From Escherichia coli (lineage in GTDB: Bacteria; Pseudomonadota; Gammaproteobacteria; Enterobacterales; Enterobacteriaceae), in NCBI RefSeq assembly GCF_011045215.1, contig NZ_CP049201.1: a DNA stretch of 64,000 bases; one strand, 5' to 3'. Positions 5,891-54,448 of the stretch are shown in pieces. Both the position numbers and the translations under genes were made by a program. Each line of letters starts with the position of its first letter. Position 1 is the first letter of the stretch. A model generated the notes under the pieces. That model was given only the letters and a program-made list of their open reading frames with translations, was not told the DNA's origin and made no database searches.

Positions 5891-6212
<322 letters not shown>

Positions 6213-6214
6213 AA

Positions 6215-7729
<1,515 letters not shown>

Positions 7730-7992
7730 CTACGCTCCTGAATCTTAAAGACAACGGCGGTGGCTACAGATAGAATTGCAAGCTTTCGTAACTCATGTCC
7801 GCTGTTGCGATGACTTCGTGTTAATCTTAACGTTATTACGGCATTGGCACGTCAGAACAAAATCTGAGAGGTGAATCCGTTGAGTATAATTATCTTAGCG
7901 ACGATTTCGACGACTCAAGAGAATAAATGACGTTTAAGCCATGAAACAAGCTAAAATCCTGCAAAAGACGAGTTTTTACGGGCGTATTTAAA

Positions 7993-9093
7993 GTGATAAT
8001 CATAAGATATCTGGTGCGGGAGACGCTCAAAAGCCAGCTGGCGATACTCTTCATCTTGCTTTTGATCTTCTTCTGTCAAAAGTTAGTGAGGATCCTCGGC
8101 GCAGCGGTTGACGGCGATATTCCGGCGAATCTGGTGCTCTCCCTTCTCGGGTTGGGCGTGCCGGAAATGGCGCAGCTTATCCTGCCATTAAGCCTGTTCC
8201 TCGGGCTGCTGATGACGCTGGGCAAACTGTATACCGAAAGTGAAATTACGGTAATGCATGCCTGCGGCCTGAGCAAAGCGGTTCTGGTGAAAGCGGCAAT
8301 GATCCTTGCGGTATTCACGGCAATCGTCGCGGCGGTTAACGTGATGTGGGCGGGACCGTGGTCATCGCGTCATCAGGATGAAGTGTTAGCAGAAGCGAAA
8401 GCGAACCCTGGCATGGCGGCGCTGGCGCAAGGGCAATTCCAGCAAGCGACTAATGGCAGCTCGGTGCTGTTCATCGAAAGCGTTGACGGCAGCGATTTCA
8501 AAGATGTGTTCCTCGCGCAAATTCGACCAAAAGGTAATGCACGTCCTTCTGTGGTGGTGGCCGATTCCGGACATTTAACCCAGCTGCGCGACGGCTCCCA
8601 GGTCGTCACTCTCAACCAGGGAACGCGCTTCGAAGGCACTGCACTGTTACGTGATTTCCGCATTACGGACTTCCAGGATTATCAGGCGATCATTGGTCAC
8701 CAGGCGGTGGCGCTCGACCCGAACGATACCGACCAGATGGACATGCGTACATTGTGGAACACTGACACCGATCGTGCCCGCGCAGAACTGAACTGGCGTA
8801 TCACGTTGGTATTCACCGTGTTTATGATGGCACTTATGGTCGTACCGCTGAGCGTGGTTAACCCACGTCAGGGACGCGTACTGTCGATGCTGCCAGCCAT
8901 GCTGCTGTATCTACTTTTCTTCCTGATCCAGACCTCCCTGAAATCGAACGGCGGTAAAGGTAAGCTGGACCCGACGCTGTGGATGTGGACCGTTAACCTG
9001 ATTTATCTGGCTTTGGCGATTGTTCTCAACCTTTGGGACACCGTGCCGGTCCGCCGCCTGCGCGCCAGTTTTTCGCGTAAAGGAGCGGTGTGA
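7993..9093 (+). CDS. lptF: LPS export ABC transporter permease LptF
   Basis: 366-aa membrane ORF with a GTG start, translationally coupled to lptG; matches E. coli LptF. Confidence 0.94.
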   Translation: MIIIRYLVRETLKSQLAILFILLLIFFCQKLVRILGAAVDGDIPANLVLSLLGLGVPEMAQLILPLSLFLGLLMTLGKLYTESEITVMHACGLSKAVLVKAAMILAVFTAIVAAVNVMWAGPWSSRHQDEVLAEAKANPGMAALAQGQFQQATNGSSVLFIESVDGSDFKDVFLAQIRPKGNARPSVVVADSGHLTQLRDGSQVVTLNQGTRFEGTALLRDFRITDFQDYQAIIGHQAVALDPNDTDQMDMRTLWNTDTDRARAELNWRITLVFTVFMMALMVVPLSVVNPRQGRVLSMLPAMLLYLLFFLIQTSLKSNGGKGKLDPTLWMWTVNLIYLALAIVLNLWDTVPVRRLRASFSRKGAV

Positions 9094-10175
9094 TGCAACC
9101 TTTTGGCGTACTTGACCGCTATATCGGTAAAACTATTTTCACTACCATCATGATGACGCTGTTCATGCTGGTGTCGCTGTCGGGCATTATCAAGTTTGTC
9201 GATCAGCTGAAAAAAGCCGGGCAGGGGAGTTACGACGCGTTAGGCGCAGGAATGTATACCTTGCTGAGCGTGCCGAAAGATGTGCAAATCTTCTTCCCGA
9301 TGGCGGCTCTGCTTGGGGCGTTGCTTGGTCTTGGGATGCTGGCGCAGCGCAGCGAACTGGTGGTGATGCAGGCTTCTGGTTTTACCCGTATGCAGGTGGC
9401 GCTGTCGGTGATGAAAACCGCCATTCCGCTGGTCTTGCTGACGATGGCGATTGGCGAATGGGTCGCGCCGCAGGGCGAGCAGATGGCGCGTAACTACCGT
9501 GCGCAGGCGATGTACGGCGGCTCGTTGCTCTCTACCCAGCAAGGTTTATGGGCGAAAGATGGCAACAACTTCGTCTACATTGAGCGGGTTAAAGGTGACG
9601 AAGAGTTAGGTGGCATCAGTATTTATGCCTTTAACGAGAATCGTCGTCTGCAATCCGTACGCTATGCCGCTACCGCGAAGTTTGACCCGGAACATAAAGT
9701 CTGGCGTCTGTCGCAGGTTGATGAATCTGATCTGACCAATCCGAAACAGATCACCGGTTCGCAGACGGTGAGCGGCACCTGGAAAACCAACCTCACGCCG
9801 GACAAACTGGGCGTGGTGGCGCTGGACCCGGATGCACTCTCCATCAGTGGTTTGCACAACTATGTGAAGTATCTGAAGTCGAGCGGTCAGGATGCCGGAC
9901 GTTATCAGCTCAACATGTGGAGCAAAATCTTCCAGCCGCTATCTGTGGCGGTGATGATGCTGATGGCGCTGTCGTTCATCTTTGGCCCACTGCGTAGCGT
10001 ACCGATGGGCGTGCGTGTGGTCACCGGTATCAGTTTCGGTTTTGTCTTCTACGTACTGGACCAGATCTTCGGTCCGCTGACGTTGGTTTATGGTATCCCG
10101 CCGATCATCGGCGCACTGTTGCCAAGCGCCAGCTTCTTCTTAATCAGCCTGTGGCTGTTAATGAGAAAATCGTAA
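9093..10175 (+). CDS. lptG: LPS export ABC transporter permease LptG
   Basis: 360 aa from the second Met of the track ORF; matches E. coli LptG. Confidence 0.94.
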   Translation: MQPFGVLDRYIGKTIFTTIMMTLFMLVSLSGIIKFVDQLKKAGQGSYDALGAGMYTLLSVPKDVQIFFPMAALLGALLGLGMLAQRSELVVMQASGFTRMQVALSVMKTAIPLVLLTMAIGEWVAPQGEQMARNYRAQAMYGGSLLSTQQGLWAKDGNNFVYIERVKGDEELGGISIYAFNENRRLQSVRYAATAKFDPEHKVWRLSQVDESDLTNPKQITGSQTVSGTWKTNLTPDKLGVVALDPDALSISGLHNYVKYLKSSGQDAGRYQLNMWSKIFQPLSVAVMMLMALSFIFGPLRSVPMGVRVVTGISFGFVFYVLDQIFGPLTLVYGIPPIIGALLPSASFFLISLWLLMRKS

Positions 10176-10189
10176 CCGAATGAACGAAT

Positions 10190-10218
10190 AAAGGGAGCGA
10201 AAGCTCCCTTTATTATTG
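10190..10218 (+). terminator. Rho-independent terminator after lptG
   Basis: Stem aagggagc/gctccctt with a gaaa loop, followed by ttattatt. Confidence 0.7.
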
Positions 10219-10285
10219 TTAGCAAAGTGTGCTTCGTTCATTCCTGAAAAATAATTAAAATTCAATATATTGCTGTGGGGTGGGC

Positions 10286-10315
10286 ATGATAAGACGCGCC
10301 AGCGTCGCATCAGGC
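10286..10315. repeat. REP element
   Basis: gataagacgcgccagcgtcgcatcaggc motif of the same family as the holC-pepA array. Confidence 0.7.
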
Positions 10316-10335
10316 AAAGACAAATCTCGCCTGAC

Positions 10336-11838
10336 TTACCTTCTTCTCCCCCCCAGCAAACTCCCCAACATCCCGCGTACAATCTGATTCGTCACCTGGC
10401 GAGCGGCGCTTTTGGCCATTGTTTGCACCACACCATCTTTCTTCCCGCCGCGTGGTCCGGTAGTGCCAAACAAAATATCCTTCAATCCACCAAGAATGCC
10501 GTCATCCACCGCTACCTCTTTCCCTTTCGCGGGGGGATTATTTTGCTGCTCGGTACTGGCCTGAAAGCCTTTTTGCAACATCTCATAGGCGGATTCCCGG
10601 TCCACCTCATCCTCATATTTGCCATACACCGGGGAGTGATTAATCAAGCCATTACGCTCATCTTCCGTCACCGGCCCCATCCGCGAACAAGGCGCAATCA
10701 CCATCGCCCGTTCCACCACAGAAGGACTTCCTTTTGCATCGAGAAACGAGATTAACGCCTCGCCGGTCCCCAGTTCCTGGATTGCCTTTTCGGTATCAAA
10801 TGCAGGGTTGGGGCGCATGGTTTGCGCCGCAGCTTTTACCGCTTTCTGATCTTTGGGCGTAAAAGCACGCAAAGCGTGTTGAACGCGATTACCGAGCTGC
10901 CCGAGCACATTATCCGGAATATCAGACGGGTTTTGCGAAACGAACCAGACGCCCACGCCTTTTGAGCGAATAAGCCTTATCACCTGCTCAATCTTATCCA
11001 GCAGTACCTGCGGTGCATCGTTAAACAGCAGATGTGCTTCGTCGAAGAAAAACACCAGTTTTGGCTTCTCGAGATCGCCCGCTTCCGGCAATTGTTCATA
11101 CAACTCTGAAATCATCCACAGCAGGCTGGCGGCGTACAGTTTCGGCATCTGATAAAGTTTCTCGGCGCTGAGGATATTGATAACGCCTTTACCGTTGGCA
11201 TCGGTGCGCATCCAGTCTTTGATATCCAGCATCGGCTCACCAAAAAAGTGTGTTGCGCCTTGCTGTTCCAGCGATAACAGCCCGCGCTGGATGGCACCAA
11301 CCGATGCGCTACTGATATTACCGTACTGATTCTGGAAAGATTTGGCGTTATCGCCGATGTACTGGGTAATCGCCCGCAAATCTTTAAAGTCGAACAGTAA
11401 CAGCCCCTGATCGTCAGCAATGCGGAAGATGATATTCAGCACGCCAGATTGCACATCGTTGAGATTCAACAGCCGCGCCAGCAACAGCGGCCCCAGATCC
11501 GAAACCGTCGCCCGCACCGGATGGCCTTTCTCGCCAAAGATATCCCACACCACCACCGGATTGGCATGCGGTTGCCAGTCATTGACGCCGATATTTTTAA
11601 GCCTTGTGAGCAGTTTTTCCGATGCCGTTCCTGCCTGCGCGATACCGGTCAGATCGCCTTTCACATCAGCCATAAACACCGGCACGCCGATTTCCGACAA
11701 TGACTCTGCCAGTTTTTGCAGCGTAACGGTTTTACCCGTCCCCGTTGCGCCAGTAATCAGCCCGTGACGGTTAGCCATTCCCGGCAGTAAAAACAGTTCT
11801 GTGTCCGGCGTGCGGGCAATTAACAGGGGTTCGCTCAT
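10336..11838 (-). CDS. yjgR: YjgR, P-loop NTPase of the DUF853 family
   Basis: 500 aa from the internal Met ([12 protein letters not shown]), Walker A motif GATGTGKT; matches K-12 YjgR. Confidence 0.88.
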
Positions 11839-11967
11839 GAGATTTCCTCCAGTTTCCTGCCTGGAGTATAGGCAACGGCTGCGCACTCTTCACCGCCAAA
11901 TTCAGCAGATTGCGAGACGCCTTCCAAAGAGATTTAAGTGCCGGGCGACAGGCACCCGGCAAAGAGA

Positions 11968-12987
11968 TCAGAAGTCAGCTTTCAGAACCACGCGGTAACG
12001 CGCCTTACCGTCGCGCACATGCTGGATGGCGTCGTTAATTTTCGACATCGGGAACAGTTCGGTAGTCGGCGCAACCTTGCTGCGGGCGGCAAAGCGCATC
12101 AGCTTACGCAACTCATAAGGTGTACCGGTAGCAGAGCCAGAGACACTGCGATCGCCCGCAATCAGCGTAAAGGCCGGAACCGGCAACGGCGTGAGAACCG
12201 CACCGACTGTATGGAAATTACCGCCATAGGTCAGCGCCTCAAAATAAGGCTGCCAGTCGAGGCTGACGTTCACAGTATTGATAATGAGATCAAACTGCCC
12301 CGACAGGGCTTTCAGTGCCTGCGGATCGCGGCTATTCACCACTTTATCGGCACCCATCGCCAGTACTTCCTGCTCTTTCGCCGGATTAGAACTAAAGGCC
12401 GTCACCTCGCATCCCATTGCGTGCAGAAGTTTTATAGCGATATGCCCCAGCCCGCCAATACCAATTACCCCAACGCGGCTGGTAGCAGTGATATGGTGCA
12501 TCAACAGTGGTTTAAAGACCGTGATACCGCCGCACAACAGCGGCCCGGCGGACTCGATATCAATATTTTCTGGCAGTGGAATCACCCATTGCCAGTCCGC
12601 ACGCAACTTCTCGGCAAAGCCACCGCGATTCATAATCGTCGGCACCGCACCTTGCTCGCAGTTGATCTGATTACCGCTAATACAGGCGTCGCAATGCCCG
12701 CAGCTACGCGCCGTCCAGCCAATCCCGACACGCTGACCGACCTGCAAACCTTTATCCTGCGCGGCGCTCCCGAGCGCCACCACGCGACCAATCACCTCAT
12801 GCCCGGCAACCAGCGGATATTGCGAAAATCCCCATTCGTTATCGATCATCGACAGATCGGAATGGCAGATCCCGCAGTAATCCACCTGCACTTCAACATC
12901 TTGTGGCCTCAGCTCACCGGGATCGTACTCATAAACTTCCAGTTCGCCGCCCGCTTCTTTTGCGGCATAGCTTTTTATCATCGACAT
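11968..12987 (-). CDS. ahr: NADPH-dependent aldehyde reductase Ahr (zinc-dependent alcohol dehydrogenase family)
   Basis: 339 aa from the internal start [14 protein letters not shown]; zinc-binding GHEVIG and C-x2-C-x2-C motifs; matches K-12 Ahr/YjgB. Confidence 0.92.
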
Positions 12988-13182
12988 TTTTTGGTCCTTC
13001 TCTGGTGTTGTTTGGGAAGTGTAGAGCATGGCAGGGCGGGGTGCCTGGAGTGTGACAAAGGTTACACATCGCTGTATGCAATGCTGAAAATTTCAGCACT
13101 TAGCGAGGTGCGAGCAAGCTGGCGCTTGCATGGTGGCGTGCGACAGGTATAATCCACAACGTTTTCCGCATACCTCTTCAGT

Positions 13183-13267
13183 GCCGAAGTGGCGAAATCG
13201 GTAGACGCAGTTGATTCAAAATCAACCGTAGAAATACGTGCCGGTTCGAGTCCGGCCTTCGGCACCA
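13183..13267 (+). tRNA. leuX: tRNA-Leu (anticodon CAA)
   Basis: 85-nt sequence GCCGAAGTGGCGAAATCGGTAGACGC...TTCGAGTCCGGCCTTCGGCACCA with CAA anticodon loop, long variable arm and encoded CCA end. Confidence 0.93.
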
Positions 13268-13456
13268 TAAAAAGCTTTTTTCAAGTCTACCAACGTCTAC
13301 TTTAGTCCATAAAAACAGTAAGTTAAGCAGAGTTTTGGCCTTTCTTAGTCTGTTCACGTCTACTTACTTCTATCCACATATACCAACGAATGATGGTATA
13401 ACTGGTGGTATCTTCGGTTCGATTGATTTTGATACCAACAGCGGAGGTATCAACTG

Positions 13457-14707
13457 ATGGCACTTACTGATATCAAAGTTAGGACTACCAAGCCCTCCGA
13501 CAAACCTTTCAAACTCACAGATGGGCAGGGTATGCACCTGCTGATCAACCCCAATGGTTCAAAATACTGGCGACTCCAATACCGTTTCGATGGCAAACAG
13601 AAAGTTTTAGCATTGGGTGTTTATCCAATGGTCTCTCTTGGTGAAGCTCGCAGGAAACGAGATGAGGCTAAAAAGTTGGTATCTGATGGTATCGACCCTT
13701 CCGAGAAGAAAAAGGCAGACAAGATCGAGCAGAGCGAAGCTCTTACTTTTGAATCTGTTGCCAGGGACTGGCATAAGGCTTGTAAAAGGAAATGGTCAGA
13801 TTCCCATAGCGAGAGAGTTCTAAAAAGCATGGAAGATGGTCTCTTTACTGCTCTTGGTAAAAGAAAAATATCCGAGCTTAATACCAGAGATCTTCTTGCC
13901 CCTATCAAGGCTGTTGAAGCTTCTGGGCGACTGGAAGTTGCTTCCCGCCTACAGCAAAGAACAACGGCAGTGATGCGATATGCTGTCCAGAACGGGCTGA
14001 TAGATTACAACCCTGCCCAGGAGATGGCAGGAGCTATTGCAGTAGCTAAAAGAGTCCACAGGCCAGCTTTGCCATTCGAACGATTCTCAGAACTTTTAGA
14101 ACGAATTGATAGTTTCAAGGGTAGAAAACTCACGAAGTTAGCCGTAAAGCTGACATTGCTCATTTTCATTCGTTCCAGTGAACTTAGGTTTGCTCGTTGG
14201 TCAGAGATAGATTTCGACAATGCCATGTGGACTATCCCTGGGGAACGTGAGCCATTGCCAGGGGTCAAACATTCTCATCGAGGCTCAAAAATGAAGACAC
14301 CACACCTCGTGCCGTTAAGTCGCCAGGCTATAGAACTCCTCAAAGCTATCAAAGAAATCAGCGGTGAATGTGAACTTGTATTCATTGGTGATCATGATTT
14401 TAGAAAGCCTATGAGTGAAAACACGGTAAACAAGGCTTTAAGGTCTATGGGCTACGACACTACGGTTGAAGTATGTGGACATGGTTTTCGTGCGATGGCA
14501 TGTAGTGCGTTGATCGAATCGGGAAAATGGTCAAGGGATGCTGTTGAACGGCAGATGAGCCACCAAGAGCGAAACTCCGTTCGTGCTGCCTACATTCATA
14601 AAGCAGAACACCTTGATGAAAGAAGGCTTATGTTGCAGTGGTGGGCTGATTACCTTAATGCCTTGAAAGATAGGTTTATCAGTCCCTTTGATTTTACAAC
14701 AAAGTAG
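13457..14707 (+). CDS. P4-family tyrosine integrase
   Basis: 416-aa ORF adjacent to the tRNA; N-terminal KPFKLTDGQGMHLLINPNGSKYWRLQYRFDGK arm-binding region and a C-terminal catalytic domain typical of P4-like integrases. Confidence 0.9.
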   Translation: MALTDIKVRTTKPSDKPFKLTDGQGMHLLINPNGSKYWRLQYRFDGKQKVLALGVYPMVSLGEARRKRDEAKKLVSDGIDPSEKKKADKIEQSEALTFESVARDWHKACKRKWSDSHSERVLKSMEDGLFTALGKRKISELNTRDLLAPIKAVEASGRLEVASRLQQRTTAVMRYAVQNGLIDYNPAQEMAGAIAVAKRVHRPALPFERFSELLERIDSFKGRKLTKLAVKLTLLIFIRSSELRFARWSEIDFDNAMWTIPGEREPLPGVKHSHRGSKMKTPHLVPLSRQAIELLKAIKEISGECELVFIGDHDFRKPMSENTVNKALRSMGYDTTVEVCGHGFRAMACSALIESGKWSRDAVERQMSHQERNSVRAAYIHKAEHLDERRLMLQWWADYLNALKDRFISPFDFTTK

Positions 14708-53104: not shown

Positions 53105-54448
53105 TTACGCTACCATGCTAATAATCAGCACAATAATCAGCCCAACCACGGAGTTGACCAGCTCCAGCAGACCCCAGGTTTTCAACGTGTCTTTTACCGA
53201 CAGGTCAAAGTAACCTTTGAACAACCAGAAAGATGCATCGTTAATGTGGGTGAGGGTGTTGGAACCCGCAGCCGTCGCCAGCACCAGCAGCGCCGGATTC
53301 ACGCCAACCAGCTGACCGGTTGCTGGATCAAGGATTGCAGCACTGATAATCCCGGCGGCGGTCATCGCCGAAACGACACCCTGACCCGTCGCCAGACGAA
53401 TTAGCACAGTGATCAGCCATGCCATAATGTAGGGCGAGATATTGCCGTGGGACATCAACATGCCGATGGTGTCGCCAATGCCGGTGTCGATGATAGTTTG
53501 CTTCAGCACGCCACCCGCACCGATGATCAGAATCACCATTGCAATGCTTTTCACCGCACTTTCAAAAGCGTTCATCACCCACTGCATGTCATGACCACGT
53601 GCGGTGCCAAAGAGTACGAATGCAACCACCATCGCAATAAACATTGCAATCGGCGAGGAACCGATAAAGTTAACCACTTCCCAGGCAGGGGTATCTTTTA
53701 CCAGCCAGATATTGGCGATGGTGGTAGAGATCATAATGATCGCCGGGATCAGCGGCACCAGAATCGAAACGCCGAAAGAGGGCAGATTGTTCATATCTAC
53801 CGGTTGATCTGCTTTCAGGAATGATGGCGTTGGGCGCTCAAGATTGCCGAGGAACTTCGGCAGGATCAGACCTGCGCAGATTACACTTGGGATCGTCACC
53901 AGTACGCCATAGATATAAACCATCCCCATATCTGCGCCATAAGCATTCACCAGCGCCACCGGACCCGGCTGCGGTGGGAACAGTGAATGTGCGGTAGTGG
54001 CAGCTGCTACTGCCGGGATCGCCAGTTTCAGGAACGGAATTTTAGCTTCGGCGGCAATAACAATAACCAGCGGCGCTAACATGATAAAGGCCACTTCATA
54101 GAACATCGCCAGACCAAAAATCAGGCCGATGATAATCACTGACAGCTGTACATAGCGCAGACCGAGACGCGCCAGCAGCGTATGCGCTATCTGGTGAGCC
54201 GCGCCGGAGTCGACCATCAATTTACCGATGACCGCACCGAACACCACGATGATAGCCAGTTCCCCCAGCGTGTTGCCGAAGCCCGCTTTCATGGTGTGCA
54301 GCAGCGACATCAAATCCATGCCCGCCAGCATCCCGACGGACAGCGCCGCCACCAACAAAGCCACCATTGAATTGATTTTGAACTTCAAATTCAGTACCAG
54401 CATCAGACCAATGCCGAATACCACCCAGAGAATGTTAAGCACATGCAT
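53105..54448 (-). CDS. gntP: Fructuronate/gluconate transporter (GntP family)
   Basis: 447-aa polytopic membrane protein divergent from uxuA; matches E. coli GntP. Confidence 0.92.

Follow-up and report, generated by a model that had tools for sequence, protein, structure and literature searches.

The idn-free yjgR-ahr junction of an Escherichia coli genome segment, compared with K-12 and with other Enterobacteriaceae

The yjgR-ahr interval and the content of its spacer

The window, as we call the whole stretch of 64,000 nucleotides of Escherichia coli DNA that was analysed, carries yjgR and ahr side by side on the minus strand, next to the leuX tRNA gene. The features of the locus are as follows.

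10336-11838, minus strand: yjgR (HerA-like ATPase, DUF853), 500 aa plus stop codon; 98.6% amino acid identity to K-12 YjgR by tblastn, and annotated as yjgR in RefSeq under the match
11839-11877, minus strand: yjgR-proximal 39 nt common to idn-free and idn-bearing genomes
11878-11967: 90 nt specific to the idn-free haplotype, with breakpoints taken from the K-12 comparison
11878-11931, minus strand: putative older upstream region of yjgR, which is collinear with the sequence between dak and yjgR in other Enterobacteriaceae
11939-11961, minus strand: candidate intrinsic terminator of ahr (fold and terminator scan)
11956-11967: 12-mer CCGGCAAAGAGA, directly by the ahr stop codon in the window and on the yjgR side of the idn block in K-12
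11968-12990, minus strand: ahr (yjgB), NADPH-dependent aldehyde reductase, 340 aa plus stop codon; 99.4% amino acid identity to K-12 Ahr by tblastn
13183-13267, plus strand: leuX tRNA-Leu(CAA), the island integration site adjoining the locus

On the plus strand, the start codon of yjgR reads CAT (11836-11838) and the stop codon of ahr reads TCA (11968-11970), so that the 129 bp given for the spacer in the first-pass annotation are exact (11839-11967). On the flank, K-12 LptF, LptG and PepA were recovered with 100% identity by tblastn. Searches with the K-12 proteins gave no match to IdnR, IdnO or IdnK anywhere in the 64-kb window, the only idn-like matches being the paralogue gntP (40% to IdnT, 53111-54382) and ahr itself (33% to IdnD), and no orthologue of idnK, idnD, idnO, idnT or idnR of the GntII L-idonate locus was found, whether between yjgR and ahr or elsewhere in the window. 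A 404-aa open reading frame antisense to ahr (11938-13152, plus strand), taken from a mechanical ORF list, is almost certainly a spurious shadow of the ahr reading frame.

Read along the minus strand, the spacer presents the ahr stop codon, a hairpin, CUUAAAUCUCUUUGG, the upstream segment, a TATACT hexamer, a small hairpin and the yjgR ATG. The 39 nt nearest to yjgR, which the window shares with K-12, E. albertii, Citrobacter and most of the outgroup genera, contain the -10-like TATACT, a CTCCAG/CTGGAG hairpin and a GGAGGA ribosome-binding site, and in the RNA the CUCCAG/CUGGAG hairpin overlaps this ribosome-binding site. The segment 11839-11877, and the TATACT within it, may act as a promoter; a consensus scan for a sigma-70 promoter of yjgR gave no full match.

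The ahr-proximal hairpin (11939-11961) consists of a G+C-rich stem of 9 bp (UGCCGGGUG / CGCCCGGCA) and a loop of 5 nt, is followed by CUUAAAUCUCUUUGG, and recurs at the equivalent place in E. albertii and Citrobacter. It is the probable intrinsic terminator of ahr, a prediction that is plausible but unproven: the terminator scan of the spacer returned one terminator-like site against a mean of 0.5 in shuffled sequences, and the tail CUUAAAUCUCUUU behind the stem is only moderately U-rich when judged as that of a Rho-independent terminator. A structured RNA in the spacer was considered and dropped, as the spacer matched no Rfam family (the sole match within 11500-13400 at E up to 1 was the leuX tRNA) and its fold z-score of -1.26 is unremarkable. 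The 90-nt segment was likewise discarded as a dispersed repeat or small mobile element, being single-copy in every genome that carries it. On either side of the ahr-proximal hairpin lies a copy of a 9-nt direct repeat, CAAAGAGAT (11925-11933 and 11960-11968); the repeat received no further support as a sign of a mobile element, and neither an element nor a mechanism could be attached to it.

Breakpoints against K-12 and frequency of the two arrangements

In the RefSeq record of MG1655 the gene order is yjgR, idnR, idnT, idnO, idnD, idnK, ahr, leuX, in agreement with the order that the first-pass annotation had given for K-12. When MG1655 was looked up for a yjgR adjoining ahr, the circumstance named as fatal to the earlier claim, the five idn genes were found to intervene. 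The K-12 GntII or L-idonate locus, idnK-idnDOTR (b4264-b4268), thus occupies the same slot, between yjgR (b4263) and ahr (b4269) and by leuX, and differs from the window in the presence of all five genes. The loss of this block from the window had also been stated correctly, as the K-12 block has no counterpart in it; of the description 'roughly 6 kb', the five-gene content stands, whereas the size was a modest overestimate of the actual 5,087 bp.

Homology to K-12 ends at window position 11877, 39 nt upstream of the yjgR ATG, and restarts at 11968 with the first base of the ahr stop codon. Between these breakpoints the window has 90 nt (11878-11967) and K-12 has 5,087 nt (6104-11190 of the MG1655 locus, L001). 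Since each form replaces the sequence of the other, the two are alternative haplotypes, neither of which is a subset of the other. The first 78 nt of the window segment (11878-11955) are absent from K-12. The 12-mer CCGGCAAAGAGA (11956-11967) was found in K-12 with 12 of 12 identities beside the shared yjgR-proximal sequence (L001 6105-6116), a match whose chance expectation is estimated at about 1e-4.

The population counts were taken over 5,426 complete E. coli genomes. The genes yjgR and ahr were contiguous in 3,212 of these (59%), and the K-12 idn block was present in 2,055 (38%), at a median of one place per genome and never on a plasmid. The idn-free 90-mer occurred, as a single copy, in 3,222 genomes, essentially the same set as those with yjgR next to ahr, and a query with the junction was matched over at least 80% of its length at 95-99% identity in 3,211 genomes. 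O157:H7 belongs to the idn-free type, with yjgR directly adjoining ahr; the spacers of O157:H7, E. albertii and C. freundii are 129-132 bp long. The absence of idn had been described as a strain-specific difference; this does not hold, as the idn-free junction is the majority state of E. coli (3,212 of 5,426, against 2,055 with idn) and is found in other species as well.

About 150 genomes fell into neither class, and two of them, MLI104K2 and FCI56, were inspected. In MLI104K2 (NZ_CP116925.1) the interval between yjgR and ahr (L083 8430-9260) is made up of long G, C and A homopolymer runs together with fragments of idnR and idnT, and this artefact stands in a RefSeq 'complete' genome as a 'hypothetical protein' and a LacI-family pseudogene. 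This 'third' arrangement was rejected as an evolutionary intermediate, the interval being homopolymer noise of a poor assembly. The partial junction match in FCI56 was also rejected as an intermediate, since FCI56 is idn-free and has its ahr truncated by a secondary deletion.

Natural variation of the operon has been reported before. According to the passages cited here, Nissle 1917 lacks idnK-idnDOTR, which K-12 and CFT073 have (PMC7924626), the ST131 strains JJ1886 and S250 lack idnK (PMC5369007), and in a pangenome survey 83% of the pks-positive genomes had the five idn genes, against about 31% of the pks-negative ones, of which 68% were devoid of them (PMC8545132). As far as these passages go, the absence of idnK, or of the whole idnK-idnDOTR set, is a natural strain difference in Nissle 1917, JJ1886, S250 and the pks-negative genomes, as it is in the window; they deal with the presence or absence of genes and not with the sequence of the junction or its relation to other genera. 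The majority counts and this published variability make the difference neither strain-specific nor new, and the absence of idn in the window is an ordinary instance of an already documented, common accessory-operon polymorphism.

The slot in other genera and the direction of change

A scan of genome contigs was dominated by distant YjgR homologues and furnished only five useful enterobacterial loci, to which outgroups were added via Ahr homologues. The arrangements found were as follows.

E. albertii, C. werkmanii, C. freundii: ahr directly adjoining yjgR, with the junction type of the window
Citrobacter sp. FP75: idnK-idnDOTR in the slot, with K-12-type junctions (45 identical positions among the 60 nt that lie upstream of the shared block)
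Salmonella enterica: ahr-idnK-idnDOTR, with 17 codons from the 3' end of yjgR left ahead of lptG
Leclercia, Trabulsiella, Yokenella, Cedecea, E. cloacae: ahr and yjgR separated by a Dak1/Dak2 kinase gene
Pseudescherichia: dak present, yjgR absent

Both junction types hence occur within Citrobacter, and the haplotype-specific junction of the window (hairpin and yjgR upstream segment) is conserved in E. albertii and Citrobacter. In Salmonella enterica the ahr-idnK-idnDOTR-lptG order keeps ahr and the lptFG-pepA flank as in the window, but the situation is the reverse of that in the window, with idn kept and yjgR nearly all lost; the remnant (L094 15103-15153) encodes 17 aa (VAKSATRQVTHYIIRGI) that match the YjgR C-terminus and lies between idnR and lptG. 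The ahr-dak-yjgR loci of Leclercia, Yokenella, Trabulsiella, Cedecea and Enterobacter have the same flanking genes as the window, which lacks their roughly 1.64-kb Dak1/Dak2 gene. This dihydroxyacetone-kinase gene was located, for instance, at L006 8217-9863, and also in loci L097 and L100-L103; in Trabulsiella an ABC sugar-transporter cluster additionally lies between ahr and dak.

From about 11839 to 11931 the spacer of the window runs collinear with the sequence between dak and yjgR in Leclercia, Yokenella, Trabulsiella and Enterobacter, the alignment blocks shared with the outgroups being CTGGAA, CGCAA, GAATTT and GTTGCCTATACT, whereas K-12 and FP75 are not collinear with it. Comparison of the idn-free types with E. 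cloacae gave 24-26 in-register identities over 60 positions, values that were reached by 2-34 of 5,000 shuffles; the idn-bearing types, compared with the idn-free types and with E. cloacae, gave 8-15 of 60, which is the level of chance; with E. cloacae the values for the idn-bearing types were 11-15 of 60. Because of this collinearity the window spacer looks like the remainder of an ahr-dak-yjgR locus from which dak is missing. Furthermore, the hairpin at 11939-11961 begins with GCCGGGTG and in this resembles the hairpin that follows ahr in Leclercia, a likeness that is suggestive only.

Three other accounts of the junction have to be weighed against that of a natural allele. A collapse or misjoin in the source assembly is hardly conceivable: bad assemblies of the locus do exist, as the homopolymer noise of MLI104K2 illustrates, but 3,212 complete genomes have the 2.8-kb arrangement in one piece, with identities reaching 98.5%, and the reading frames on both sides of the junction are intact. 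It is also very improbable that the source genome has its idn genes at another locus and is not idn-negative. Although the view covers 64 kb of that genome, the 2,055 idn-bearing genomes have the genes at a median of one place and in no case on a plasmid, in each of the six idn-bearing E. coli loci that were inspected (K-12 and five others) they lie between yjgR and ahr, and the 3,222 genomes with the 90-mer and the 2,055 with idn add up to less than the 5,426 surveyed.

A recent deletion of idn in the lineage of the window, from a K-12-like yjgR-idn-ahr parent, has more in its favour, as the idn-bearing layout is found in Salmonella, in FP75 and in 38% of E. coli, so that idn must be old at this site, and small deletions do happen here, as the truncated ahr of FCI56 demonstrates. 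It is nevertheless improbable. The 78 nt that are missing in K-12-type genomes prevent the spacer from being a subset of theirs; the same 78 nt can be aligned with the dak-yjgR intergenic region of other genera; and the same junction recurs in E. albertii and two Citrobacter species, which independent deletions would not have produced. The window is therefore not a simple deletion derivative of K-12, and judged by these alignments a deletion from a K-12-type parent is largely refuted. Very probably, the presence or absence of idn at the ahr-yjgR slot is an old polymorphism, of which the window carries the common natural idn-free allele.

As to which of the two alleles came first, the short non-coding matches lead us to favour, with some reserve, the window type as the older and the K-12 type as the derived one. 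In the layout that would have come before, which is that of other genera of Enterobacteriaceae, dak occupied the ahr-yjgR slot, and it would then have gone in the Escherichia-Citrobacter group, leaving the 129-bp spacer, in which the putative terminator hairpin of ahr meets the original upstream region of yjgR. The K-12-type allele would have arisen, most likely, by insertion of the lower-GC, 5.1-kb idnK-idnDOTR directly after the ahr stop codon, and by loss of about 78 nt comprising the hairpin and the yjgR upstream region, whereby the opening 12 nt of the ahr terminator region may have ended up on the far side of idn. Both alleles would since have circulated in E. coli and Citrobacter, moved by homologous recombination in the flanking genes. 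This direction rests on the 12-mer and on some 55 nt that are 40-45% identical to the outgroups, and against it stands that two events, the insertion and the 78-nt loss, are required to connect the alleles; the term 'ancestral' would apply to the spacer sequence alone.

The insertion itself appears to be as old as Escherichia, Citrobacter and Salmonella, since all three share the idn layout and since the divergence between K-12 and FP75 in idn (20%) is similar to that in the flanks (about 18%). At 47.3%, the K-12 idn block is poorer in GC than its flanks, which have 54-56%. Neither terminal direct or inverted repeats of at least 8 nt at its ends nor a mobility gene inside it were found; the block does not have the attributes of a mobile genomic island, and its lower GC content is the sole sign of a foreign origin.

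Exchange of the alleles, function and the neighbouring island

Neighbour-joining trees of yjgR and of the ahr-leuX region, built for 13 E. coli (seven idn-free and six idn-bearing), mix the two idn states, and the idn-free L087 and the idn-bearing L092 are only 1.2% apart in yjgR. Among these 13 strains the idn states differ by only two fixed sites, the fourth and seventh nucleotides from the ahr stop codon, both of them synonymous, and on the yjgR side no site is fixed between the states. A flank haplotype associated with the idn state was looked for and rejected beyond 7 nt from the junction. As the flanks are not sorted by idn state and linkage is broken within a few nucleotides, the alleles appear to be exchanged by homologous recombination in the flanks.

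The mean pairwise diversity of yjgR (4.57%) and of ahr together with the spacer (3.39%) exceeds that of lptG (1.52%), and the idn block, compared among its carriers, has 0.65%. Tentatively, and with less confidence than doubt, the slot may be seen as a very old trans-genus polymorphism of which both haplotypes persist in Escherichia and Citrobacter; if so, the nearly uniform idn allele between diverse flanks would suggest either that idn has spread recently through recombination or that selection maintains both states.

The diversity of yjgR is itself unusual, with a mean of 4.6% and a maximum of 6.7% pairwise nucleotide divergence in the 13 strains (the window, L001, L002 and L084-L093), and could stem from the proximity of the leuX hot spot or from selection on the HerA-like ATPase. 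Within 10336-13271 a mosaic boundary was also noted at or near the spacer, the ahr-leuX part of the window being 99.9% identical to EF7-18-51 (L002) and its yjgR only 97.5%; no sampled E. coli is closer to the window yjgR than EF7-18-51, and the best match to the 2.8-kb yjgR-ahr stretch among complete E. coli genomes does not exceed 98.5% identity.

In K-12, according to the literature cited in PMC5369007, PMC7924626 and PMC4052901, L-idonate and 5-ketogluconate are handled by a subsidiary route, GntII, which idnK-idnDOTR encodes. By analogy with this K-12 literature, a strain with the window allele would be expected to do without the GntII route for these two substrates and to use gluconate via GntI; the idn-free Nissle 1917 is reported, in the passage cited, to grow still on gluconate and 5-ketogluconate (PMC7924626). 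We further infer that the window yjgR lies behind its original upstream sequence and not behind idnR. For annotators this means that K-12 represents the minority state at this locus and that utilization of L-idonate via GntII is not to be expected from the window allele. The junction, with its dak slot, its displaced terminator fragment and its recombining flanks, may serve to illustrate how a small metabolic operon becomes accessory without mobility genes; its importance hardly goes beyond bookkeeping, and it raises no new question.

On the far side of the window, fimD, fimH, gntP and uxuAB apparently follow from about 48 kb, as judged by the positions of open reading frames and by the annotation of EF7-18-51; among these names, gntP alone is backed by a tblastn match. 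The island on the leuX side (13300 to about 43000) starts with an integrase-sized open reading frame at 13457-14707. Its stretch from 13300 to 38000 is partly shared with other strains, at 68% coverage and 97.5% identity with ETEC strains and at 41% with IAI1, and the annotations under the island matches include DUF262 and DUF3696 proteins, three tyrosine recombinases, a relaxase and ISCro1.
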